DNA from: a virus
Taxonomy: Duplodnaviria; Heunggongvirae; Uroviricota; Caudoviricetes
Virus record (IMG/VR): IMGVR_UViG_2531839479_000007
Length of the DNA stretch: 32,745 nucleotides
Strand: one strand, 5' to 3'
Below the pieces are notes generated by a model, which had not been told where the DNA came from, did not search any database, and saw only the letters and a list, made by a program, of their open reading frames with translations. Position numbers and translations under genes: made by a program. Below are positions 1 to 29,094 of the stretch, in pieces (the stretch's first letter is position 1; the number at the start of each line of letters is the position of its first letter).

Positions 1-852
1 CTAGGATATCTTTCCATGACATTCTTTGAAGCGTTTTCCACTCCCGCAATGACATAAGGCATTTCTTGACATAGATTGTGGTGGACTCAAGTCAATTTCG
101 CTAAGCATCGAAAGTAATTCCTCTGCTGCAATTGCTTCTCCAATCATAACTTGAGTTAGACTTCTCATATGAATCAATAATTCTGCTACAATTTGAGATT
201 CTACAAAACTTTTAGTTTCTCCAGCGTCATTAGTAGCGGTATAGGTGACGCCACTCATATTTTCAGACAAAGCTTCAATAGCTGATTGATGGTATTGACT
301 GATAGGAGCATGCTTACTCACTACAATACCTATTACTTTATTATCTGAAGCTTTTAAAAGAGCTCCACCAGAATTTCCTGAGTTAAATGCCCCATTTACC
401 ACTAGATGTTTTTTTTGTCCCTTGGCGGTTTGGTATGAGTTAAATCCTGCTAGATAACCAACGGATAGTAACGGTGCAGGACCGTTGTATCCTAATGGGT
501 ATCCCCAAGTTGTTACTGATTCACCAACTTTAAGATCATTATCCTTAACAATACTTAGCCCACCAGTCTGGGTAATGGCAGGTCTCAGCACAGCTAAATC
601 GCGATCAGAATCTATCCATTTTTGAGAAATTGGAATCTTCTGTCCATAAGCTGAAATTGCGAAAATCTGATTTGTAGAGCATCCAGTGATAACATGCTCG
701 TTCGTTACTATTAACCCATTATCTATTAAAAAACCAGATCCTTTCGAGCCTGTCGCAGGACATATAATCATATAAACAGAATTTACTGATGAGCGTCCAA
801 CTTCACCCGTAGCGTCTAAAGTCCATTGAGTAGATATGGGGATATTGTTCAA
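1..852 (-). CDS. Trypsin-like (S1 family) serine protease with C-terminal SEC-C metal-binding motif; flanking gene outside the prophage
   Basis: 283-aa ORF; His/Asp/Ser triad contexts TNEHV, DLAVL, GNSGGAL; C-terminal CHCGSGKRFKECHGK matches the SEC-C motif; TTG start at 850-852 with AAGGAG 8 nt upstream; TAG stop at 1-3; visibly AT-rich. Confidence 0.6.
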   Translation of the reverse strand: MNNIPISTQWTLDATGEVGRSSVNSVYMIICPATGSKGSGFLIDNGLIVTNEHVITGCSTNQIFAISAYGQKIPISQKWIDSDRDLAVLRPAITQTGGLSIVKDNDLKVGESVTTWGYPLGYNGPAPLLSVGYLAGFNSYQTAKGQKKHLVVNGAFNSGNSGGALLKASDNKVIGIVVSKHAPISQYHQSAIEALSENMSGVTYTATNDAGETKSFVESQIVAELLIHMRSLTQVMIGEAIAAEELLSMLSEIDLSPPQSMSRNALCHCGSGKRFKECHGKIS

Positions 853-3098: not shown

Positions 3099-5540
3099 TC
3101 AGTCGAGTCTCATACTGGATCGCTGACGCGCACGTTTCTCGCGGTCAAGTTTGTCGACCGCGTCACGGAGCTGGCGGTCAAGGTCACTGCCCGGTGCGAC
3201 TCCGCCCTGCAGGTTGATGTTGTATTCGCTTTTGCTCTGGTCGATATAAGACAGGCCTGCGGGCGCTGTGACCGGCTGATACGCCTGATACCCGCCATAA
3301 CCTGCGGTCGCAGGGATATACCCGCCATTCGGGGACGCCTTATTCGCTTTCGCTGCGGTCTGGTCGAGGTCGCTGGATTCTTTTTTGATAACGCCGAGTT
3401 TCTCCAGCAGCCAGCCGACCTTGCCGCTCAGGCTGTTAAACATCTTGAGCGGCATCATCAGCGCATCAGCCAGCGCCTGGCCAAAAGTAACGCCGACATT
3501 TTTGCAACTGGAGAGCGTGTCCTGCGTGGCTTTCACCGGCGCAAGCAGGTCTTTAAACCACTGGCAGACGACACCCAGCTTTTCAGCGATGGCGTCAAAC
3601 ACCGGCGCGAGCGGGGTAAACATGTCCCCCACCGGTGCAAAGGCGGCTTTCAGTCCCTCCACCACGCCCGAGAAGAATGCACCGAGCGGCTCCCAGTATT
3701 TGCGGATCAGCAATGCACCGGCCACCACTGCACCGGCTACCGCCAGCACCGGCAGGCTGATTGCGCCAATGGCCGTGACAATCGCGCCGCCGACCGTACT
3801 GAAAACCACACCGAGCACGCCAGCCGCCGCAATGATGGCATTAATCCCCATCACCACCGGCCATGCGACAAGGCCAATCCCGCCCATCACACCGATCAGC
3901 GCCAGCGCACCACCAACCACCACGCCGAGGGTGGTCGCCAGCCCTTTATTTTTCTGGATCCAGCCGTCGAGCCTGAGCACATATTGCGTGGCCGTCTGCG
4001 TCAGCTTACGCAGTGAGCCCTCCTGCTGATCAAACAGGTCAGTGCCGACCGCCTCATAGGCTGACTGAAACTCTTTAAAGTCGCCGCCGAGGTTATCCTG
4101 CATAACCTTAACCAGTTCCTCAGTCTTACCGTCTGAGGCTTTAAACGCGGCGGTGAGCTGGTCGAGCTTGCCGCTTGATGCGGCGGCCATCAGCACGGCG
4201 GCCGCCGAGCTGGCCTCTTCACCGAAAATGGTTTTCATGTATTCGGATTTCTGACCCGTTCCGAGATTGTTTTTCTCAAAACTGCGCTGCATTTCTTTCA
4301 GGATGGAAAATATCGGGCGCGTATTGCCTTTGCTATCTGACGTTTTAATACCGAGCTCTTTGATGGCGTCGTACGCTTTACCGGTTGGCGCCTGCAGGCG
4401 ACTCAGAACGGCACGACTCCCTGTACCCGCCATCGAGCCGGTGATTTTGGAATCGTGCAGCGCCCCCACCATTGCGGCGGTTTCTTCGATACTTACCCCG
4501 GCATTTTTCGCCACTGGCGCGGCATAGGTCAGCGCATCACTCATTCCATCAAAGTCGGCGGCGGTTTTGTTCATCGTCATCGAGAGAACATCACCAATAT
4601 GCGCGACTTTATCGTTAGAGAGCTGAAAAGCAGATTTCATGCCTGTCAGCAGCGCAGCGTTTTCTTCCATCGTGCGCTTGTTCGACAGCGCCATATTCAG
4701 TGTGACCGGCGTCGCCGCCTGAATGGCCGCCGCATCGCCGCCGCTTTTGGCAATGATAATCTGCGCACCCGCCGCATCATCGGCAGAGGCAGCGGTATTA
4801 TCACCGAGCTGGCGCGCCTGTTTACGCAGCGCCTGCATTTCAGGCGACTGTTTGTCGACACCGAGCACGGCCTGCAGCTCTGAGTTTTTCTGTGCAAATT
4901 CATAACCAAGCGTCAGCAGCTTAACCCCGGCGAGGGTTCCCGCCGTCGCAATACCAACACCGGCTGCGCCAGCCGCCGCCGCGTTTCCGGCCAGTGATTT
5001 ACCGGCCTGATACCGCGCTTTCACCCGGCTTAACTTCGCCTGCTGTGCGCTGACTTTCGCCAGTGCCTCACGCTGCCGATTAAGCTGCGCGGTAGTCTCA
5101 CTGATGCGCGATTTAAGCCCCCGCTCATCATTTGCCAGATTACGGGTATTAATACCGACTGCACCGAGTTCACGTTGCTGGCGCTTAACAGACTCAGTGA
5201 GGCTGTTGTATTTCGTCTGCAGCCCGTTGGCGGCACGCTTTGCCGATTCAAGCACCTGCGCCTGCGCGCGCGTCGGGCGCTCGGTGTTTTTAAATTGTGT
5301 GGCAAGGGCTTGCGCTTCCTGTTTCGCTTTCTCAAGCGAATGACCGGTCACGGCAAGCTGGGCGCTGGCTTTGCGGAATCCGTCAATACGGGACGCCTGC
5401 ACATTAAGTTCGCACAGGCTTTTTTGTGAATTGCGGATATCACCAGACAGGGATTTGCTGGCGTTCTGAATCGCTTTAAGCGGGCGGCTTGCCCGGTCAA
5501 CTGCGTTCAGCAGCACCTCGATTCTGACGTTATTGCTCAT
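3099..5540 (-). CDS. T: Tail tape measure protein T
   Basis: 813 aa; Ala/Gly-rich central hydrophobic segment and coiled-coil-like N-terminal part typical of tape measure proteins; position between E/E' and U. Confidence 0.9.
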   Translation of the reverse strand: MSNNVRIEVLLNAVDRASRPLKAIQNASKSLSGDIRNSQKSLCELNVQASRIDGFRKASAQLAVTGHSLEKAKQEAQALATQFKNTERPTRAQAQVLESAKRAANGLQTKYNSLTESVKRQQRELGAVGINTRNLANDERGLKSRISETTAQLNRQREALAKVSAQQAKLSRVKARYQAGKSLAGNAAAAGAAGVGIATAGTLAGVKLLTLGYEFAQKNSELQAVLGVDKQSPEMQALRKQARQLGDNTAASADDAAGAQIIIAKSGGDAAAIQAATPVTLNMALSNKRTMEENAALLTGMKSAFQLSNDKVAHIGDVLSMTMNKTAADFDGMSDALTYAAPVAKNAGVSIEETAAMVGALHDSKITGSMAGTGSRAVLSRLQAPTGKAYDAIKELGIKTSDSKGNTRPIFSILKEMQRSFEKNNLGTGQKSEYMKTIFGEEASSAAAVLMAAASSGKLDQLTAAFKASDGKTEELVKVMQDNLGGDFKEFQSAYEAVGTDLFDQQEGSLRKLTQTATQYVLRLDGWIQKNKGLATTLGVVVGGALALIGVMGGIGLVAWPVVMGINAIIAAAGVLGVVFSTVGGAIVTAIGAISLPVLAVAGAVVAGALLIRKYWEPLGAFFSGVVEGLKAAFAPVGDMFTPLAPVFDAIAEKLGVVCQWFKDLLAPVKATQDTLSSCKNVGVTFGQALADALMMPLKMFNSLSGKVGWLLEKLGVIKKESSDLDQTAAKANKASPNGGYIPATAGYGGYQAYQPVTAPAGLSYIDQSKSEYNINLQGGVAPGSDLDRQLRDAVDKLDREKRARQRSSMRLD

Positions 5541-5999
5541 GATGGCTTCCGCTTCGTTGCAGCGCCTTATCGCGCCATGTCAGGAGCTCGGTCACACTCA
5601 GGGAATTTAGCTCTGATGGCGGCCAGTGGAAGATCACCGCAATATCCGCCATCAGGTCATCGACCGACAGTTTTTCCGGGAAGGTCAGCGACCCGAAGCT
5701 GGTGACAAAAAACCGACCACCTTACCGGCCAGTGAAATCAGGTCTGACGCATCCAGACGCGCGAGCTCGTGCTCGGTCAGTGCCGGATATGTCATGCGCG
5801 GCAGCACCTTAATCAGCGCATCAACGTCGGAATTTGCCAGCGACGCCAGCGACACCCCGCGCAGGGTTCCCGCATTCGGTTTGGTTAAGGTGACCTGCTC
5901 AACTTTCTGCTCACCGCGCATCAGCGGGGTGTCAAAAATAACGACATTCGGATTGACGTTCTCAGTGTCAGCAACAGCAGTCTCATTGATATTTTTCAT
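5530..5999 (-). CDS. E: Tail assembly chaperone E+E' made by programmed -1 frameshift (slip at 5706-5712)
   Basis: Zero-frame reads GGT TTT TTG at the slippery heptamer; the -1 frame then stays open to TAA at 5530-5532, overlapping the T start, as in P2 E/E' (about 156 aa total by my count). Confidence 0.7.
5685..5999 (-). CDS. E: Tail assembly chaperone E (zero-frame product)
   Basis: 104-aa ORF, ATG at 5997-5999, TGA at 5685-5687; gpE-like sequence and position upstream of T. Confidence 0.85.
   Translation of the reverse strand: MKNINETAVADTENVNPNVVIFDTPLMRGEQKVEQVTLTKPNAGTLRGVSLASLANSDVDALIKVLPRMTYPALTEHELARLDASDLISLAGKVVGFLSPASGR
5706..5712 (-). other. Slippery heptamer T_TTT_TTG (minus strand) for the E/E' -1 frameshift
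   Basis: Plus-strand CAAAAAA at 5706-5712; in the E frame the codons are GGT-TTT-TTG, matching the X_XXY_YYZ pattern. Confidence 0.7.
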
Positions 6000-6053
6000 G
6001 CGAATTTCTCATCAGGGTAAATGACCGGCCAGCCTCACTGACCGGTTGAAGGA

Positions 6054-12715: not shown

Positions 12716-13003
12716 CCTCCTTTGAGGGGCTGATTGAAACCTAGTCGAACATCCAGCGTTGTTCCTTAGCTGCGTGACAATGTTTTTGAACACAGTATTG
12801 GCCAAAGCTGAGCCGAAATTGGCATCCTACGAAAAATTCGATTTCTCTAGCCAGTAGTTCGATTTTAGATTTTGTATTACCTTACTCAATGAGTTTTTGG
12901 TCAGATTTTTAACACACTCAACGCCAAAAGCGGGCGCTCACGTAAACATATCCATTTTTGCTTGAGACATATTTACTATTACAGTGAGCAGTTTATCTGT
13001 TTT

Positions 13004-13032
13004 CCAAAAGAGGCAGAGGTATATTTCTGCCT
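13004..13032 (-). terminator. Candidate terminator downstream of the moron gene
   Basis: AGGCAGA / 8-nt loop / TCTGCCT hairpin at 13011-13032 followed on the minus strand by CTTTTGG; starts 14 nt below the moron stop. Confidence 0.35.
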
Positions 13033-13045
13033 AGCGCATGTTGCC

Positions 13046-14032
13046 TTATGGATTTGACTTCCCTGAAGTCTCTTTTTTTATTTCAAATTTCCCACCCTTG
13101 AACATGATATTCGAATCTTTGATTCCATACAAAAGCATTTCATAAGGATGGTTAATTTTTTGTTCTTTTGTAGCGATACTGGAATTCATCAATTGCAACA
13201 AAGCCACATGATGTTCACTCGCCCCTAACTCTACCATTTTGGTAGCCATGTTGCTTATCTGTTCTCGTTTTAAAAAATCTTCCCGGAGAGAAAGTAACGT
13301 TAAACTTCGTGCGTTACAAAACTTTATCATGTAAACAACAAACGCACCTAACCCAATATAGGAAAACGATAATGCTAAATAAATAGACGGTGTGGTTATT
13401 ATGTTTTGCCCAAATATAAGAAAACCCAGCAGGCCAAAAAAATAAAAAACATTCACCAAAATAAACATGTTACTCATCAGAGCCTTTGTACTTCGAGTTG
13501 CATCATATTCTTTCTCCAGATGCTCCAAAAATGATGATATTTTTATTAAATTTAACTTTTCAATTGTTTCCTTCTCTAAAATCTTGAATTGCTCACTCTC
13601 TCTAATTAATTTTTTGGTAGTGTCCTCCACTGTATCATGCAATGATTCAGTGATCGCCTCTTCAATTTTATTTTCAGAAAACACGCTTGTTAAAGCGTAA
13701 TTGGCTAATTCCTTTTGTCTTTTCTCGATTAAACTTTCGACATTTTCTCTGTACGCATCAAAATATTTTTGACCACTCTCGTTTAGCAATATTTTACGAA
13801 TATGAAATTTTATTTTCTCATCTGCCATTGGTTGGCTTTCAGTGTTACCATTCTTCTTTGTGTTATTATCTTTAGTTTCCGCATTATACCTGTCCTTGCC
13901 TGAATCAAGTAAGTTCCGTGAAATGAATTTCACCACAGGACCACGCAGAATAGCTATAGCTATTGCCATTGCAAGAATGAATGGTGAAGCATCAATAAAT
14001 GATCGCGCAAATACGAAAGAGATTTCACTCAT
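13046..14032 (-). CDS. AT-rich moron: predicted membrane protein of unknown function (N-terminal TM helix, charged central region, two further TM helices, soluble C-terminal domain)
   Basis: Start set at ATG 14030-14032 (AGGGA 8 nt upstream); hydrophobic stretches SPFILAMAIAIAIL, MFILVNVFYFFGLLGFLIFG, IYLALSFSYIGLGAFVVYMIKF; sharp drop in GC relative to V and S on either side. Confidence 0.6.
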   Translation of the reverse strand: MSEISFVFARSFIDASPFILAMAIAIAILRGPVVKFISRNLLDSGKDRYNAETKDNNTKKNGNTESQPMADEKIKFHIRKILLNESGQKYFDAYRENVESLIEKRQKELANYALTSVFSENKIEEAITESLHDTVEDTTKKLIRESEQFKILEKETIEKLNLIKISSFLEHLEKEYDATRSTKALMSNMFILVNVFYFFGLLGFLIFGQNIITTPSIYLALSFSYIGLGAFVVYMIKFCNARSLTLLSLREDFLKREQISNMATKMVELGASEHHVALLQLMNSSIATKEQKINHPYEMLLYGIKDSNIMFKGGKFEIKKETSGKSNP

Positions 14033-14075
14033 AAACATTTCCCTATCTAAAATCAAAGAGTTTACTTTTACCCAT

Positions 14076-14104
14076 ATTTTCTACTGACTGAACCAGTTTG
14101 ACAA
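14076..14104 (-). promoter_or_regulatory. Candidate sigma70-type promoter for the moron gene
   Basis: Minus strand TTGTCA (plus 14099-14104), 17-nt spacer, GAAAAT (plus 14076-14081), about 45 nt upstream of the ATG; weak -10, so tentative. Confidence 0.25.
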
Positions 14105-14345
14105 GAGAGATAAGCATCTTTAATATCGATTTTGCCCATTAGGCATGAAAATAAAAAATACCACATGAAATCAATATCATACAATGACCACGCGTTGACC
14201 TCATCCATAACCAATAAATTATCTGATCATGAAATTCTTGATATGCATTGCAGAATTCGATTTCCACCATTTCGCTTTTAGATGTTCATCAAATATCAAC
14301 ACCCCACTATCAGTAGTTGACAGATCAACTCGTAGCTAATTCAAA

Positions 14346-14786
14346 TCAGATGAGTAAAAAAAGATCCTCAATTAATTGTATATCGTTCCTGCTAAATCCG
14401 AGTAACTGGCGTTCTGGATATTGCACGTCCTGAGCATGAGGGTTTGGCCGGTCTTTGAGTCCGAACTGATGAATCTGCGCGATGCGTTGCACCTTGCCAG
14501 TGAATTCCACCACGGCAGTATCATTGCGGCCACTGGCTTTCATGTAGCGACTGGTTCGCAACTTCTGAAACATCGCCCGTTTAATGCGTCCTTTTTTTGC
14601 CCTCAGCGGCTGGCGTTTTCGTGCCTGATACGGCGTGCCATCAGGTGCTTTTTGCTGTTTGATTCGTTGCTGTTGCGATCTGCGCAGTTCCTTCGCAATC
14701 TCAGCGGCCAGCTTGCGCCGACCCACCGGTGATATTGCCGCAATCAGTCCCGCAAGTTTGTCATCAAAAGGTTTAAATTCATTCAT
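14346..14786 (-). CDS. S: Tail completion protein S
   Basis: 146 aa, gpS-like; ATG at 14784-14786 overlapping the R stop. Confidence 0.9.
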   Translation of the reverse strand: MNEFKPFDDKLAGLIAAISPVGRRKLAAEIAKELRRSQQQRIKQQKAPDGTPYQARKRQPLRAKKGRIKRAMFQKLRTSRYMKASGRNDTAVVEFTGKVQRIAQIHQFGLKDRPNPHAQDVQYPERQLLGFSRNDIQLIEDLFLLI

Positions 14787-22963: not shown

Positions 22964-23026
22964 TTTTCAAAATAAACATCTCAACATTATATTCAGCCCT
23001 GTAACTCAAGAACCACAGATAATAAC

Positions 23027-23055
23027 ATCACAGCCCACTTTATCGGGGCTGTGAT
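23027..23055. terminator. Perfect 10-bp inverted repeat between convergent Q and the cargo operon (candidate bidirectional terminator or structured element)
   Basis: ATCACAGCCC / 9-nt loop / GGGCTGTGAT; 64 nt after the Q stop and 4 nt before the cargo stop codon; no clear U-tract on either strand. Confidence 0.35.
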
Positions 23056-23058
23056 AAT

Positions 23059-24171
23059 TTAACCAACCCTTGCTTTTTTATATGGACCACAACTCCAACT
23101 AAAGAAATTCTTACCTAACTTATACCATTTATCAGAAAGCACTGGTGTTAGGTGAGGATTATATTTTTTTAAACTTCCCTTTTGTATATATTTCAATGTA
23201 TTGCTGAGCAAATTCTCTCCAAAACCATCATAACTTACACAAGCAGCGTTGCAGCTACAACGTTTTGATTCGATATACTCACAATCATATTTTATATCAA
23301 GCTTCTTTAATATCGGACGCCAATATGCACCATGTTTTCGATCGAGTTCAAGGGCTGTTTTAAAATCAAAACCTTTTTTATGGTCAATATAAAATTTTAC
23401 TGATTCATCTACGGAGCAAAGATGCTTAAAGAAAATGAGAGATTTTTCTTTTTGTTGCAATTGACTTTGACTTCTTAATACATCTTCAATTGTCGATAAA
23501 GGAACTAGAGATTCTATTTCATGTACATCTAAAATCTCCACGAAACCTGAGCGAGTAATTTGTGAGCCCAAAAAATGTGAGCAAGTACCTCCGAATGGGG
23601 CTCCAGGATGTTTTTTGTCATTATCCACAATACAAAAAACTATCTCATTATTTTGAATTGCACGCTCGAATATATCCTTAGTACTGCCCCCACCGCCATT
23701 TAGAGCGATAAAACCCATTTCGCAGCGAGATAAGTTAATACCTTCGGCATAATGAGCCGCTATAACCTTAAAAAAATCAGAATCCAAAGGATTTTCACAT
23801 ACTATTTTCGTTTTTTGCAATTGTGCCGAGTCATTAAAATACAATGGACCACAAACAAATTTAAAAGATTCACCGATCTGAACCCATTTAAATGATTTAT
23901 CACTAATATTAAAGTCGACAGATACATAAAATGAGACCTGATCCAAGATAGCATAGTACTCTGTTAGACCCGACAAAGCCTCTTGCGCGTAACTTTTTGA
24001 TGAAAGGCTATAAAGCCCGCTTTGATCATTGATAATAGTTTTAAAAAAAACCCTTGCCCCTATAACCAAGTGTTTTTGTTCAGCGAATGCCCGAAGTATA
24101 TTTTCAACCGCTATGGCAAATGAGTTATTTAGCACCTTCTCAGGTGTCGCATTTTCGATATTAATCAACAT
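23059..24171 (-). CDS. Cargo gene 2: 370-aa partner protein of the ATPase, unknown function (possible Toprim-like E...DxD core; Cys-rich C-terminus)
   Basis: ATG at 24169-24171 only 2 nt after the ATPase TAG stop; AT-rich; ...RCEMGFIALNGGGGS...IVFCIVDNDKK... could be Toprim-like; C-terminal CEYIESKRCSCNAAC cluster. Confidence 0.6.
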   Translation of the reverse strand: MLINIENATPEKVLNNSFAIAVENILRAFAEQKHLVIGARVFFKTIINDQSGLYSLSSKSYAQEALSGLTEYYAILDQVSFYVSVDFNISDKSFKWVQIGESFKFVCGPLYFNDSAQLQKTKIVCENPLDSDFFKVIAAHYAEGINLSRCEMGFIALNGGGGSTKDIFERAIQNNEIVFCIVDNDKKHPGAPFGGTCSHFLGSQITRSGFVEILDVHEIESLVPLSTIEDVLRSQSQLQQKEKSLIFFKHLCSVDESVKFYIDHKKGFDFKTALELDRKHGAYWRPILKKLDIKYDCEYIESKRCSCNAACVSYDGFGENLLSNTLKYIQKGSLKKYNPHLTPVLSDKWYKLGKNFFSWSCGPYKKARVG

Positions 24172-24173
24172 AA

Positions 24174-25730
24174 CTACTTACCCGAGAAAAAGCCAACCGG
24201 CCAATTTTTTAGGAAACCATTCTCGTCAAAATAAGATTTCTTAACTATAGTCTGCTGCTTATCATCTTTTTCAAATACCAGTATTGAAATATCATCCTGT
24301 GAAAGACTTTCATTTTCCTCAATATATTCACCAAGTGCTTCAATCATGGTCTGGCTATGTGTCTCAAAAATTATCTTCAAATCTACATTATTTTCTTTTG
24401 CTTTAGTTACTACTTTTGCAAAAATACTTGCTAAATTATGCTGATATGACGGATGTAAATGCAATTCTGGCTGCTCAATGATAAATGTTATAGGTTTTCT
24501 AACCGTGGTAGCACGACGTTCTGTCTCAAGCCAAATGGCTGTAACTATCGGCAAAACCTGAGAATAACCAAACCCCATATCACTAACATTATAGTTCTCA
24601 CTATTTTCACCGGTGTTTATTAAAATTGCAAAGTGAGAGCCACTTTGTTCAACCTTGATAATGAAATCAAAATTTAACTTTGTCCAATCTTCAAATTTTG
24701 ATTTATCAGCCGGTCTTAATGAATTCAAAAGCATTGCAAGATTGGAACCAGTATGATCTATCTCATTAACCTGTAAATCTTGAAAACGATAAAATCTTTC
24801 TGATGTAGCACGCAGTGGAGCTATGTACTTTACATTTCTGAATGAATCTGACAAGGATGTATTTATTATATCTATAAGATTATTAATATTCCATCCAATT
24901 ATAAATGGATATAACTCATTCATTATTTCATCATGTTGAAATTCAAAGTTTCTACTAAAAACTTTTTGTTCCTTAAATAGAAAAGCAACTAATTTACTAG
25001 CGTACGCTTTGGGTATAAAGCCAATTCTTTTGAATGCCTCTGTCACTTGATTTATATCAGATTTAGTATGGAAATATTTCTTTATATATTTCGCCGCTGA
25101 ATCAATAAATGACAATTCTAACGCCCTGTCATGCCTAGAATGTCTCAAATAGAATGATGTGCTTGGAGGAGGACTGTCTTCCTTACCCTTCAAAATTAGA
25201 TTTGGTATGAACTGCCCAAGATTTTTAGCTATTATCCCATCACGCTCTATTGTTTTATCATCTGATTCAATGAGTAATTTAACATTACTACTCTCATCCA
25301 TTGAAATAAATATTGTTAAATCAGCCAATATAAGCTTAATCGTTTTCGTTTTTGTTTTTTTATCTTTAGAGTAAACAGTTAACTCTGCTTCAATATCTGT
25401 TGGTTGCTTTGCTAAATCAGTAGAACGATAATATGTATATCTTTGTGAAACCTCTGGCGGAATTGAGAGTGAAAAACTAAACGTAATTTCTTTTTTTTCA
25501 GAGTTTCGGGAAAGTACATCTGTAAAATCGCCAAAATCCACATATCTCCCATACCATAGTATTGGGCCAGTAGTATTTTCTTCTACAGATTGACGAAGTA
25601 AAGGAAATGTGCGCAATAGGGAACTTTTACCACTGCTGTTCTTACCAACAAATACTGTAATTGGTTTTAAATCAATAAACGTTTTGTTGACAAAGCTCCT
25701 GAAGTTTTGAAGACCTATACCCTTAATCAT
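24174..25730 (-). CDS. Cargo gene 1: ABC/OLD-family (AAA_15/AAA_21-like) ATPase without a C-terminal Toprim domain
   Basis: Start set at MIKGIGLQNFRSF (ATG 25728-25730, GGAG 6 nt upstream); Walker A GKNSSGKSS, Walker B/D-loop ITFIIEQPELHLHP, H-loop IIFETHS; ORF-track start at 25802 is TTG inside the cos-like sequence. Confidence 0.75.
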   Translation of the reverse strand: MIKGIGLQNFRSFVNKTFIDLKPITVFVGKNSSGKSSLLRTFPLLRQSVEENTTGPILWYGRYVDFGDFTDVLSRNSEKKEITFSFSLSIPPEVSQRYTYYRSTDLAKQPTDIEAELTVYSKDKKTKTKTIKLILADLTIFISMDESSNVKLLIESDDKTIERDGIIAKNLGQFIPNLILKGKEDSPPPSTSFYLRHSRHDRALELSFIDSAAKYIKKYFHTKSDINQVTEAFKRIGFIPKAYASKLVAFLFKEQKVFSRNFEFQHDEIMNELYPFIIGWNINNLIDIINTSLSDSFRNVKYIAPLRATSERFYRFQDLQVNEIDHTGSNLAMLLNSLRPADKSKFEDWTKLNFDFIIKVEQSGSHFAILINTGENSENYNVSDMGFGYSQVLPIVTAIWLETERRATTVRKPITFIIEQPELHLHPSYQHNLASIFAKVVTKAKENNVDLKIIFETHSQTMIEALGEYIEENESLSQDDISILVFEKDDKQQTIVKKSYFDENGFLKNWPVGFFSGK

Positions 25731-25801
25731 TCCTAGCTCCATTAGTTCAATAAAATCAATCGATTTTGAGACAATCTTAATATCTTTGACAGGCGCGCGC
25801 A

Positions 25802-25820
25802 ATGCTTACCCCGCCTCGCC
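25802..25820. other. cos-like site (19-nt cohesive-end sequence)
   Basis: Minus strand reads GGCGAGGCGGGGTAAGCAT, 17/19 identical to the P2 cohesive end as I recall it (GGCGAGGCGGGGAAAGCAC). Confidence 0.55.
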
Positions 25821-26102: not shown

Positions 26103-26342
26103 CTATGGTCGACGCGGTGGTGGCTTTGCCATATTTGGTGGCCGAAACGCCTCAATTTTCGGATTGCTGATATCGCTGTATTTGCGGTGATTATCCCGGA
26201 CGACACCGGCACACCCGACCAGTTCGTCAGGGGTCAGATTCTCGTTAATCATAATTTGTTGCAGGCGATGTACGACGGCCATCAGCTTAATGTTTTGCGT
26301 TGAATGTATCGGCGGCACTGGCATCATTCGCATATGACTCAT
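26103..26342 (-). CDS. Small hypothetical protein (79 aa) coupled to the DUF3850-like gene
   Basis: ATG at 26340-26342 overlaps the upstream TGA (ATGA); MSHMRMMPVPPIHSTQNIKLMAVVHRLQQ...; no recognisable family; ORF-track start at 26351 is GTG. Confidence 0.35.
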   Translation of the reverse strand: MSHMRMMPVPPIHSTQNIKLMAVVHRLQQIMINENLTPDELVGCAGVVRDNHRKYSDISNPKIEAFRPPNMAKPPPRRP

Positions 26343-26803
26343 TTTAACCACCCATTTTTTTTAGCATCTGCGACCAACTTGTCGGAATATTGCCAGACAC
26401 CATCATCAGCGATGTAAGCCCTACCAGAAACGCTGTTAAGTGTTTCATATCTAATAGCCAGCCCTAACGGGTGTAGAATTTCGTGATTAACTCTGAAAAC
26501 AAGCCCCTTCTCGCTTAACTCTTTCCAGTTCATTAGGGACATACCGCACTGGACATCTGGCATCATTAACTGAAAACTCAGCATCACATAATTTTCCGCC
26601 CATTCAGATAAATCCGTAACGTTTGTCACCCTCACTGATACACGTTTCCCGGTATATCTGTTTACCGGTTCCCATTCATGCAACCCGAGAATATCACCGC
26701 TAGAATAATCGCGGTCATTGAGACGAAATTCAGCACGTTTTTCCTGAGATATCACAGAGTTAAAATACTCAGGTGCAATTTTTAACTCATGGATTTTGCT
26801 CAT
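26339..26803 (-). CDS. DUF3850-like (ASCH/PUA-like) domain protein with ~75-aa C-terminal extension; accessory gene coupled to A
   Basis: Start set at MSKIHELKIAPEYFNSVISQEKRAEFRLNDRDYSSGDILGLHEW (ATG 26801-26803 overlapping the A stop, TAATG); motif resembles DUF3850 as I recall it; lower GC than A. Confidence 0.55.
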   Translation of the reverse strand: MSKIHELKIAPEYFNSVISQEKRAEFRLNDRDYSSGDILGLHEWEPVNRYTGKRVSVRVTNVTDLSEWAENYVMLSFQLMMPDVQCGMSLMNWKELSEKGLVFRVNHEILHPLGLAIRYETLNSVSGRAYIADDGVWQYSDKLVADAKKNGWLK

Positions 26804-29094
26804 TAATTCTGCTCCTCTTGAATTGAGAATCCCGGCCACTCATCAGCAGCCGCGTATTTGATTTTTTTATCGCCATAAATCACCGTTGCCCCACGCGCCA
26901 GCGCTTCGAGCGCCCACCGTTCCGGGGTAATGCCCTCCTGAGCCAAATCGAAACGAATTTTCGCCACGCGATCCCTTTCTGGTTTTGTCATCCTGGCTGA
27001 TGGAGCTTGCTCGCTCGTTTTGAGTGGCGCATTGCTTCTTTGCTGGCGATTATTGCGAGGTGCGCCAGCTTTTAACGCGCCGTTAAGAACCTTCATGACG
27101 TCTGGCTCATTCCAGCCGATAACCCCGGCCTCAATCAGATTTAACACCGCTGCGGCTTGCTCAGACGGTGTAGGTGTCATAACTGGATCGCCACCGTCGG
27201 CAAGCTTTCCACAGTTATTGACAGGACTCCGAGGCGCGGCAGAGCCGCTTTTTAAGGTCAAAGGCTCAACGGCCAAAACCTTTGGAACTATGCGCCATTC
27301 CGCTGTACGGGTTACATGTACGCGGCTCACCCCAAGATGAGGGGCATAAATACCGACCACTTTCTCGATATCCTCCTCGTATTCGTTTACCTCATCCGTC
27401 ACCTTACGGGCGACCCTGACCGCCTGAGCATCACGCGGCATGTTTGCCCCACCCTGCGCGCTGATGTACAGGTCAAATTCCCCCTCATCTGCAGCAGCCC
27501 GGACGGCCTCGACACGGTCGTCAAACTCGCTGGCGATACTCACCCCGCGCGGCAGCTTACGCAGTTCGCGGTAAGCGCCCATTGTCGGGAGGCCAATCGG
27601 TTTAAACTGAGGGATACGCCATGTAGACGCCCATGCGGTTACGGCTGCGGCCGTATCTTTCAGAGATTTGCCGGTATCGTGATCGAGCTGACCGTCAAGC
27701 GCGTAGCCGTCGATATTTTTGGCAATGTATTTGGCGATATAACCCGCCGCGCCCCCCTGATTAAGGTGACGCGACTCAAAGCGCTGTTTTGCCGCGCCCT
27801 TTTCGTGTCCGTCCTCTTTGAGGGCATAACGACGCATAATTTCGTTGATAGCTTTACGCTGACTGAGTTTGCAAAAAAGCATCATATGCCAGTGTGGCGT
27901 GCCGTCGTGGTGCGGCTCGACAACGCGCATCCCATACACTTCCAAATCGTTATCTTTGAAAGCGGTACGCATCAGGCTCCAGATTCGGCACAGATAGCGC
28001 TGGCCGTTTTTAGGGGTGAATGCGGTTTCGTTCCAGCCGTGATTGAGCTGCACCGTTTTGCTGTCACCTTTGCCGACCTGTCGGGTCGGGTGATACTTCG
28101 ACGGCGTGGTCAGCGTGATAAACATTCCCACATCACCAACGCTGGCCGCATAGCGTTCAATTCCGGCAATGGTGTTCATCAGCTCCATACGGCGTATTTC
28201 AGGGTTTGAAATACTCCCCATGACTTTACTGATGAGGTCGATACGTTCGCCGGTAACTTTGTTTTCCAGCTCACAGGATTTCAGGTATTCGAGATTAGCC
28301 AGCCGGCGCGAGTGAACCTCGCGGATCGCCATTTTGCTGGCGTAAGGTGAACGGTCTTTGTTGACTTCACCGGCAGCGATAAGCAGCGCCTCGCGCCAGC
28401 GCATACGCTGCGCCTTGAGCTGGTTAACCCACCAATCATCTTTTATCAGACGGGAAATAGCGGAAAACGCCATGCGGATCGTCATCTGACCCTTACGGTA
28501 TTTTTTCCAGTAGAGCGGGGTTAAGTTGAACGCGCGTGCAACACCAGCCACCTGACCATATATGTGCACCTGCGCCTCATCGGTGAAAAGGGTCTCTTTA
28601 CCGCCGAATGCCTCAGCCCATTCGTCGCTGAGTTCCTCGTATTTACGCCAGAGCTGCGCGGCAATTCTGGCCGCAAATTTTTTCAGCTCTTTGTCATTCA
28701 TATCAGGCAAGCGCGCATATTCGTCACGCTCAGACAAGAAACCAATCGACGCAGATTCATTCATCCCGCACAGCTCGTTAACGCGCTCAAGACGCGGCAA
28801 CAGCTTCCGCTCAAAGGTGTTTTTCAGGAAATAGAGCGCCCCGGGCGGGCTCTTTGTGCGACGAATGAAGTTATAACGGGAAGTAAACAACGTCTTAAGA
28901 AAGAAAGGCAGGCGGTCAATCCGGTATAAAACACCTTGCACCTGACGGAATTCGGCACGTGTAAGGGGTCTGTCACGGCCAATGGCAGCGCGGGGAGCAT
29001 TCCAGGGATAAGCACCAACGAAAGTATCGCCGGTGCGCTTAGATATTGGCAGGGCTAGCGAGGGGGCAATACGCCCCCGAGTCTCAACGGCCAT
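26803..29094 (-). CDS. A: Replication initiation protein A (rolling-circle nickase)
   Basis: Start set at MAVETRGRIAPSL (ATG 29092-29094); 763 aa; extensive identity to P2 gpA as I recall it, including ...VVEPHHDGTPHWHMMLFC... Confidence 0.9.
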   Translation of the reverse strand: MAVETRGRIAPSLALPISKRTGDTFVGAYPWNAPRAAIGRDRPLTRAEFRQVQGVLYRIDRLPFFLKTLFTSRYNFIRRTKSPPGALYFLKNTFERKLLPRLERVNELCGMNESASIGFLSERDEYARLPDMNDKELKKFAARIAAQLWRKYEELSDEWAEAFGGKETLFTDEAQVHIYGQVAGVARAFNLTPLYWKKYRKGQMTIRMAFSAISRLIKDDWWVNQLKAQRMRWREALLIAAGEVNKDRSPYASKMAIREVHSRRLANLEYLKSCELENKVTGERIDLISKVMGSISNPEIRRMELMNTIAGIERYAASVGDVGMFITLTTPSKYHPTRQVGKGDSKTVQLNHGWNETAFTPKNGQRYLCRIWSLMRTAFKDNDLEVYGMRVVEPHHDGTPHWHMMLFCKLSQRKAINEIMRRYALKEDGHEKGAAKQRFESRHLNQGGAAGYIAKYIAKNIDGYALDGQLDHDTGKSLKDTAAAVTAWASTWRIPQFKPIGLPTMGAYRELRKLPRGVSIASEFDDRVEAVRAAADEGEFDLYISAQGGANMPRDAQAVRVARKVTDEVNEYEEDIEKVVGIYAPHLGVSRVHVTRTAEWRIVPKVLAVEPLTLKSGSAAPRSPVNNCGKLADGGDPVMTPTPSEQAAAVLNLIEAGVIGWNEPDVMKVLNGALKAGAPRNNRQQRSNAPLKTSEQAPSARMTKPERDRVAKIRFDLAQEGITPERWALEALARGATVIYGDKKIKYAAADEWPGFSIQEEQN

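Follow-up and report, generated by a model that had tools for sequence, protein, structure and literature searches.

The window analysed here is a stretch of 32,745 nucleotides (nt) of Caudoviricetes DNA (IMG/VR virus record IMGVR_UViG_2531839479_000007) that holds a P2-like Escherichia coli prophage, and the element in question is a pair of adjoining minus-strand genes lying between its cos site and portal gene Q. We read this pair as a probably functional two-gene anti-phage cassette for inter-viral competition, carried as prophage cargo and of a 'split OLD' type, in which an OLD-ABC ATPase and a putative Toprim nuclease are encoded as separate polypeptides (probability roughly 0.7). Two results strengthen this reading: the ATPase matches solely ATPase models of defence systems, and the same cassette is present in P2-like phages, P4-like satellites, a Pf inovirus, a lambdoid prophage, plasmids and chromosomal islets. 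A defence role had also been proposed in a preliminary description of this DNA made from its sequence alone, and both the ATPase models and the mobile-element carriers argue for it.

A tightly coupled gene pair between cos and Q

The cassette comprises the following features, listed in the direction of transcription, with protein lengths in amino acids (aa).

25802 to 25820, minus strand: cohesive-end 19-mer of cos, GGCGAGGCGGGGTAAGCAT, the left boundary of the cargo, with 2 mismatches to P2 cosR (GGCGAGGCGGGGAAAGCAC)
25731 to 25801, minus strand: AT-rich 71-nt leader with a ribosome-binding site (GGAGCTAGGA), as read from the sequence
24174 to 25730, minus strand: gene 1, for a 518-aa ATPase of the OLD-ABC (AAA_15) type that belongs to the NsnB/PDC-M55A clade and ends in a DUF3696 tail (PADLOC, Pfam)
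23059 to 24171, minus strand: gene 2, for a candidate effector of 370 aa, with an alpha/beta domain at its N terminus, a central OLD-type Toprim core and a Cys-knuckle domain at its C terminus
23028 to 23054, minus strand: terminator-like hairpin and U-rich tract 3' of gene 2, with a 9-bp G+C-rich core stem that is slightly extended in the fold

Reading of the junction bore out the tight coupling described earlier: the TAG of gene 1 (24176-24174) is followed by TT and the ATG of gene 2 (24171), a spacing of 2 nt. The end coordinate 25802 given for the pair had to be corrected, as this position is only the most upstream TTG of the gene 1 open frame and overlaps the cos 19-mer (25820-25802). Gene 1 starts at the ATG at 25730 (MIKGIGLQNFRSF), with GGAGCTAGGA just 5' of it, in agreement with RefSeq, which has the same start in identical E. 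coli prophages for a 518-aa 'DUF3696 domain-containing protein' (WP_000589623) and labels the 370-aa gene 2 product 'hypothetical protein'. The two genes indeed form an AT-rich block, with a GC content of 0.32-0.37 over 23001-25500 versus 0.55-0.60 in the flanking phage genes. Chance open reading frames (ORFs) are ruled out because the frames are long for AT-rich DNA and have conserved homologues from Enterobacterales to Cyanobacteria and Bacillota.

The surroundings are those of a P2-like E. coli prophage, with integrase, cox, B, the replication endonuclease gene A and a DUF3850 (orf91-like) gene before the pair, and portal Q, terminase P, capsid and tail genes after it. Locally the order is A, DUF3850 gene, small ORF, cos, pair and Q, and this order together with the cos 19-mer places the pair in the cos-to-Q part of the A-to-Q variable region of P2-like phages, as had been claimed. 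This cos-proximal hotspot was described by Rousset 2022 (PMC9122126), where defence was obtained with three of the eight systems newly cloned out of the P2 A-Q hotspot.

The exact 2.9-kb segment was found in 39 of 5,426 complete E. coli genomes, as a single chromosomal copy in every case, while another 97 genomes share just its first ~100 nt, the cos flank; the cassette is therefore carried by 39 of the 136 E. coli genomes having that flank. Among isolated P2-like phages of Yersinia, Salmonella, Escherichia and Erwinia the match is likewise limited to the ~100 nt of the cos flank, and P2 itself and most P2-like phages are without the cassette.

Gene 1 is an NsnB-type ATPase with a hypervariable insert

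Among PADLOC models, gene 1 ranked highest against NsnB (4e-55, residues 3-517), followed by PDC-M55A (6.6e-46), HEC-03B (1.4e-37) and AriA (2.6e-31), with HEC-01A, GajA, AbiLi and Old at lower ranks; every one of these matches is to the ATPase of a defence system. In Pfam the protein matches AAA_15 (2.8e-27; 96.8 bits, cutoff 32.1), AAA_21 (8.4e-19; 69.2 bits, cutoff 27) and, at its C-terminal end, DUF3696 (PF12476; 3.6e-7, 30.7 bits versus a cutoff of 22). NCBIfam and PHROGs gave nothing specific for it, and Pfam detected no Toprim domain. The earlier assignment to OLD/AAA_15-type ABC ATPases with the full motif set and no Toprim domain is thus upheld, with DUF3696 occupying the end of the protein.

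We aligned the gene 1 protein with four distant partner ATPases (33-74% identity), and this five-sequence alignment defines the conserved and variable parts listed below.

25623 to 25646, minus strand: Walker A P-loop GKNSSGKS, residues 29-36, with G29, N31, G34, K35 and S36 invariant
24846 to 25460, minus strand: hypervariable insert, residues 91-295, with a mean pairwise identity of 21% versus 50-59% in the ATPase core
24354 to 24581, minus strand: signature-like SDMGFGYSQ, Walker B IIEQPELHLHP and H-loop ETHS, residues 384-459
24186 to 24302, minus strand: DUF3696 C-terminal tail, approximately residues 477-515 (FDENGFLKNWPVGFFSG; Pfam PF12476)

The invariant positions include D384, G386-G388, I418-P427 and E456-S459, and the invariant motifs are GxNxxGKS, PLRAxxERxYR, the GFG signature-like motif, IEQPELHLHP, ETHS and the tail motif E-x-G-x-L-x-x-W-P-x-G-F-F. 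PLRAxxERxYR has an Arg at the Q-loop Gln position, as described for NsnB. For all four distant partner ATPases NsnB is likewise the best PADLOC model and DUF3696 likewise scores above its cutoff, and the tail motif is kept in each of them. In Menshen, equivalent DUF3696 tails are predicted by AlphaFold3 (AF3) to clamp the effector NsnC (PMC12065111). Remodelled ATPase inserts have been proposed as sensors (Payne et al. 2024), and by this analogy the insert at residues 91-295 is a candidate sensor region.

Gene 2 encodes a predicted OLD-like Toprim protein of a large family

Gene 2 matched no Pfam, PHROGs or NCBIfam family, a single sub-threshold PurQ match being due to chance, and its sole PADLOC match was PDC-M55B at 2e-4 (19 bits, profile positions 100-255 of 315). 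A word-indexed homologue search returned 31 clusters, and an exhaustive profile search returned 1,866 clusters (50% identity) at E<=1e-3, of which 354 at E<=1e-30; the best 150 are mostly full-length, ~340-396 aa. Judged from these sequence searches, gene 2 belongs to a large family outside Pfam coverage. When 64 diverse relatives were searched against Pfam at E<=10, none matched Toprim, DUF4435 or OLD_TOPRIM (PF20469), and against the PADLOC models one of the 64 gave a weak match to GajA (0.0032). Two family profiles compared with PDB sequences yielded chance matches only (TGF-beta receptor, NDUFA10), and aligning the family profile to P2 Old as a lone sequence by hhalign gave no match. Starting from the C-terminal region of P2 Old, a homologue search returned only three near-identical fragments, unusable for a profile-profile comparison with OLD.

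Structure comparison revealed the fold. The gene 2 model matched best the C-terminal region of Burkholderia OLD (BpOLD; 8.7, 160 residues aligned), followed by Thermus OLD (TsOLD; 8.4), AriB (6.8), retron Ec67 (6.5), GajA (6.3) and a small Toprim protein (6.2), and the OLD matches cover the Toprim and helical regions. The top Foldseek matches, which were weak, were GajA and Ec67. The preliminary description had left it to be decided whether gene 2 is a DUF4435/Toprim, HNH or novel protein, and these comparisons give it a Toprim fold, while its sequence has no DUF4435 match. Three parts can be told apart.

23812 to 24171, minus strand: N-terminal domain, residues 1-120, a family-specific alpha/beta fold with no clear relative
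23323 to 23811, minus strand: Toprim core and helical region, residues 121-283, with E126, D130, GGG159-161, D183xD185, E218xE220 and D263/K265/G267
23062 to 23322, minus strand: C-terminal region, residues 284-370, where C297/C305/C307/C311 make up the Cys knuckle and W349, W359 and C361 are also conserved

Across the 64 members, which are 19-43% identical to the gene 2 protein, E126, G161, D185, E220 and G267 are invariant, and D130, D183, E218, D263 and K265 are 92-97% conserved (D130, D183 and K265 at least 94%). The E...DxD core that had been suspected from the single sequence is therefore a conserved feature of the family. The Toprim superfamily, to which gene 2 belongs by this definition, is characterized by its alpha/beta fold with a conserved Glu following strand 1 and a DxD following strand 3. 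OLD proteins have another metal site besides, and their helical domain contributes a Lys; in BpOLD the two-metal site is formed by E400/E404, D455xD457 and T506xE508, and the catalytic Lys is K562. In gene 2 the motifs follow as E-x3-D, 57 residues, DxD, 35 residues to ExE and 45 to K, and this parallel order and spacing suggests a residue set equivalent to the BpOLD two-metal site and Lys.

The Cys cluster noted beforehand also recurs in the family: three of the knuckle columns are 89-95% conserved and the fourth shifts position. The knuckle loop is the only low-confidence loop of the gene 2 model, with a pLDDT (predicted local distance difference test) score of 68-69, as would be expected of a metal site invisible to the model, and the knuckle probably binds metal. 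The N-terminal 120 residues, folded alone, reached a pLDDT of 94, but no structure resembles them convincingly; conservation within the protein is lowest here.

The pair is obligate and recurs on several kinds of mobile element

We collected loci from looked-up genomic places, from IMG/VR and from annotated plasmid and phage records, and found by tblastn an ATPase homologue (32-100% identity) immediately 5' of the gene 2 relative in 26 of 26 loci. The pairing is obligate in this set, with gaps of -1 to +9 nt and a single exception of 48 nt. The putative nuclease is always less conserved than its ATPase (for example 71 versus 80%, 62 versus 74%, 38 versus 50% and 27 versus 33% identity to the prophage proteins). 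At the looked-up places, the Pfam-annotated neighbours include no NsnA/DUF262 gene, the other loci not having been scanned with the DUF262 model.

Seven P2-like loci share the slot A-cos-pair-Q, even at identities as low as 35% for A and 73% for Q. In P4-like satellites of Pectobacterium and Pantoea the pair lies between psu/delta/sid and int, the satellite hotspot. A Pseudomonas Pf-like inovirus carries a copy annotated 'DNA double-strand break repair rad50 ATPase' and 'putative OLD family nuclease', and one lambdoid prophage carries the pair as well. Plasmid carriers are found in B. thuringiensis (near a DUF4297 gene), Planococcus and Ruegeria, and a more distant pair on a Bacillus pacificus plasmid adjoins AbiG. 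Small chromosomal islets of Providencia, Klebsiella aerogenes, Thiothrix and Geitlerinema complete the range, some of them beside insertion sequence (IS) elements or BrnTA.

The cos 19-mer sits 72-252 nt 5' of the ATPase ATG in the seven P2-like loci and the Pectobacterium P4-like satellites. Conservation between loci ends ~7 nt past cos and variable cargo begins within ~7-10 nt of the 19-mer; the cargo boundary is therefore essentially the cos site. In the window the cargo spans from cos to the end of Q, and cos is separated from the ATG by 71 nt. The P2 genes old and tin are located across cos from the position of this pair.

Cassette copies that are 65-80% identical hold the cos-adjacent slot in both P2-like helpers and Pectobacterium P4-like satellites, a shared position that suggests helper-satellite exchange through the common cos region. 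In the Thiothrix unzii chromosome (locus 3338-6001), a transposase pair (helix-turn-helix and DDE_3) splits the ATPase gene into parts of 313 and 199 aa, with the nuclease gene intact and a BrnT/BrnA pair just 3', an example of cassette inactivation. The 3,023-bp Enterobacteria phage P2-EC5 fragment AM157364.1 encodes another ATPase, which in its C-terminal half shares 29% identity with gene 1, and more than one lineage of DUF3696-type ATPases seems to reside in P2-like variable-region DNA.

Downstream of the pair, the terminator-like hairpin lies just past the stop codon of gene 2, opposite the convergent portal gene Q; its folding energy as RNA is -19.5 kcal/mol (z = -4.8), and none of 200 shuffled sequences was as stable. 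Transcription of the pair might begin in the 71-nt leader or arrive across cos, the latter being workable only with circular or integrated DNA.

The pair forms a sister clade of PDC-M55

The nearest relative that we found is PDC-M55, one of 145 untested 'guilt-by-embedding' PADLOC candidates (Payne et al. 2024), for which our literature search found no paper. Both are two-gene arrangements of an ATPase followed by its partner, with homologous ATPases including the DUF3696 tail and partners homologous in the Toprim core, where they share the same E/DxD/ExE/D-K-G motifs. PDC-M55B is matched by 53 of the 64 gene 2 family members (best 6.4e-13), and the PDC-M55 pair on the Bacillus pacificus plasmid (A at 8e-80 over its full length, B at 2.5e-26) has the same catalytic motifs. 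The differences are nevertheless consistent: gene 1 matches PDC-M55A in two stretches and below NsnB, on which it scores higher, and is ~50 aa longer; the prophage partner has 370 rather than about 350 aa and covers only half of the PDC-M55B profile, at 2e-4; and the Cys knuckle is missing from the Bacillus partner. On these sequence comparisons the prophage pair is a sister clade of PDC-M55, its proteins homologous but forming a separate subfamily. Judged from model scores rather than calling rules, PADLOC would probably not call it. The preliminary description had left the choice between a named family and a new one unsettled; PARIS, AbiL, Septu, Gabija and Menshen now drop out, and what stands is this kinship with a PADLOC candidate.

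The OLD family and other named systems also differ from the pair. A classical OLD nuclease of classes 1-3 (P2 Old in class 1, GajA in class 2, retron Eco8 or Ec67 effectors in class 3) is rejected since ATPase and Toprim are on separate polypeptides here. The likeness to OLD is considerable, comprising the OLD-ABC ATPase, a Toprim and helical region closest to BpOLD/TsOLD, the parallel two-metal set with its Lys, and the A-Q hotspot that P2 Old also occupies, whereas gene 2 has no OLD_TOPRIM sequence match and P2 old lies across cos. Septu, Gabija and AbiL were rejected by their defining features. HEC-01 was rejected because gene 2 is matched by none of its models, which pick up gene 1 alone and mostly its N-terminal part (best E 1e-17, with the strongest stretches inside residues 3-176).

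Validated two-gene systems resemble the pair in the logic proposed for it. In HEC-03 (ATPase and PIN) both genes are required (Payne et al. 2024); an ATPase regulates a nuclease, as would be the case here, and the ATPase model corresponds to gene 1 in the C-terminal half and tail, although its effector is a PIN domain and not a Toprim. The prophage-borne WonAB system joins an OLD-ABC ATPase to a PD-(D/E)xK nuclease, needs both genes, uses the ATPase for nuclease action and shuts down translation. It is likewise a two-gene, prophage-borne arrangement, but was rejected as a validated homologue since WonB is a PD-(D/E)xK nuclease. PARIS, Septu, HEC-03 and WonAB are validated functional analogues in which an ATPase controls a nuclease, and they speak for the defence reading. 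A 2026 P2/P4 hotspot preprint and a Pf-phage defence paper make no mention of the pair.

Alternative explanations

The pair might be a divergent PARIS/AbiL system (AriA and AriB), in which binding of a phage anti-restriction protein such as Ocr causes an ATPase scaffold to let go of a DUF4435 Toprim tRNase. PARIS shares with it a split ABC ATPase and Toprim nuclease of similar sizes, P4/P2 hotspots beside cos and, as the likely common logic, an ATPase scaffold controlling a nuclease; PARIS has been proposed as 'class 4 OLD'. The detection rule for PARIS is an AAA_15/AAA_21 ATPase gene beside a DUF4435 partner (Rousset 2022, PMC9122126), and gene 1 is such an ATPase adjacent to its effector. 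What decides against PARIS/AbiL identity is gene 2, which has no DUF4435 (PF14491), AriB or AbiLii match, nor do its 64 relatives in Pfam; the ATPase moreover belongs to another clade with a DUF3696 tail, and the nuclease carries in addition an N-terminal domain and a Cys knuckle. We regard a divergent PARIS as rather improbable. A decaying or non-functional remnant of Menshen (NsnABC) that has lost NsnA is less probable still, and very unlikely. It would account for NsnB being the best model for gene 1 and every partner ATPase tested; gene 1 has what defines NsnB, an ABC ATPase with a DUF3696 C-terminal helix, together with the GxG signature and the Arg for the Q-loop Gln, and the effector gene lies directly 3'. 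Some NsnC effectors carry Toprim-fold nucleases, and Menshen occurs in E. coli P4 hotspots (PMC9122126). Menshen has three genes, however, versus two in the prophage pair: its sensor NsnA, a ParB-DUF262 and ParBDB protein, is encoded directly 5' of NsnB, and NsnC joins an inactive PIN-like (inPIN) domain at the N terminus to an effector at the C terminus. Identity with Menshen was rejected because no NsnA/DUF262 gene lies upstream in the window, where cos and P2 backbone are found, and because gene 2 matches no NsnC model and has no detectable inPIN domain. Decay is also hard to reconcile with intact, closely coupled two-gene copies conserved across 26 loci that range from Cyanobacteria to Bacillota, or with 1,866 clusters of full-length proteins.

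Two further explanations dispense with defence. In a selfish addiction module resembling toxin-antitoxin (TA) systems, a toxic nuclease and a neutralising ATPase would stabilise the element with no anti-phage role. A potentially toxic nuclease does have a partner here, its carriers are prophages, satellites and plasmids, and TA systems adjoin the cassette in some loci; yet all close ATPase models come from defence systems, experiments on the analogous PARIS and WonAB have ruled out simple TA action, and the hypervariable insert of the ATPase fits an arms-race sensor better than an antitoxin, so that we consider addiction unlikely. The pair could otherwise serve the phage's own DNA metabolism, as an SMC/Rad50/RecF-like ATPase with a nuclease for recombination, repair or cos-end processing, or attack host defences. 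The position directly beside cos and the rad50 ATPase annotation of the Pf record would fit, and gene 1 has weak N-terminal matches to SMC_N, RecF and Rad50, but these are confined to the ~40-residue P-loop region and fall far below curated cutoffs. The cassette is also dispensable, being absent from P2 and most P2-like phages and present in 39 of 5,426 E. coli genomes, and the same cassette occurs in non-phage islets and plasmids; we give a role in DNA metabolism very little credence.

A proposed mechanism for the candidate defence cassette

We favour the reading of the pair as an anti-phage cassette, and a possible course of action can be outlined, each single detail of which we hold with much less confidence than the reading as a whole. 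A homo-oligomer of the ATPase would hold or silence the nuclease, the contact probably being made through the DUF3696 tails and the fast-evolving N-terminal domain of the nuclease. A phage-derived cue would be sensed by the ATPase itself, since there is no NsnA-like DNA sensor, and probably through the variable insert. ATP binding or hydrolysis might then release or activate the Toprim nuclease, which would cut nucleic acid by two-metal catalysis with the Cys4 metal knuckle aiding substrate binding, and infection would be stopped, most likely by growth arrest or abortive infection.

OLD and GajA cut DNA. In PARIS, AriA reportedly releases AriB upon trigger binding, and AriB is said to cleave tRNA. 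Because the modelled fold and the residue set are closest to OLD, we lean slightly towards DNA rather than tRNA or RNA as the target.

Several points weigh against the defence reading or this mechanism. The docking of the DUF3696 tail on the N-terminal domain is borrowed by analogy from the AF3 predictions for Menshen, and no PIN likeness was detected in the N-terminal domain of gene 2. HEC-01, also an ABC ATPase with a TOPRIM protein, gave no protection in Payne et al. 2024. The gene 2 protein (WP_000906719) is present in Table S5 of Rousset 2022 (PMC9122126) and absent from the table of tested systems there. Expression in the lysogen is a further concern: a consensus promoter scan upstream of gene 1 found no sigma-70-like site in the 71-nt leader, where the sole candidate by eye is a weak TTGTCT...TATTGA.

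A more far-reaching reading, which we put forward tentatively and at somewhat less than even odds, joins these elements. The pair would found a widespread unannotated defence family, comprising no fewer than 1,866 clusters (50% identity), in which a Menshen-type NsnB ATPase without the ParB-like NsnA senses infection via its hypervariable insert and controls a Pfam-less Cys4-knuckle Toprim nuclease, and the cassette would be anchored within ~10 nt of cos and exchanged there between P2-like helper and P4-like satellite.

Other loci in the prophage

Between A and cos, the interval 26103-26839 (minus strand) holds a DUF3850/ASCH and DUF7415 gene, a P2 orf91 homologue that is longer than in P2, and a small ORF of 76-82 aa matching no family. 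Both are conserved with the P2-like backbone and not with the cargo.

At the opposite end of the prophage, between ogr and the host gene yegQ, an AT-rich gene (positions 1-852, minus strand; GC 0.36-0.39) codes for a trypsin-like peptidase of 283 aa carrying a SEC-C motif at its C terminus. In PADLOC its matches are to the protease part of RT-Protease_XI (7e-21) and to PDC-M35A (6e-13), and it may be a second cargo or defence-related gene. A 336-aa orphan ORF (13046-14056, minus strand; in RefSeq a 328-aa hypothetical protein, WP_001290067) lies in an AT-rich island at 13000-14500 (GC 0.33-0.38) between the tail-completion gene S and the baseplate gene V, the slot of P2 orf30. It has no PADLOC match and, in Pfam, only a sub-threshold one to DUF2852. 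This region is a third variable locus of the prophage.

Implications for ATPase-controlled nucleases

Part of this picture was already known, namely the architecture, the hotspot and the inference of defence; a published supplement already contains the gene 2 protein, and the sister clade is a PADLOC candidate. No new principle is involved, as ATPase-controlled nucleases in the P2/P4 hotspot are well established. What is new is the fold assignment for a large Pfam-less family, the stable pairing of an NsnB-type ATPase with a putative Toprim nuclease without NsnA, the distinction from PDC-M55, and the cos-anchored occurrence in P2-like helpers and P4-like satellites alike.

If functional, the pair would add a large family to the ABC-ATPase/Toprim immune systems, with thousands of members across Proteobacteria, Cyanobacteria and Bacillota, carriers among myoviruses, satellites, inoviruses and lambdoid prophages, and a nuclease that for the copies searched has no model in Pfam, PHROGs or NCBIfam and a weak match in PADLOC. 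One cassette directly after cos in helper phage and satellite is a natural example relevant to the movement of defence cargo. If functional, the pair would also bear on infection sensing by Menshen-type ATPases, because it lacks the presumed sensor NsnA; and should the joint reading hold, ATPase and effector would be the autonomous core module from which three-gene Menshen was elaborated.

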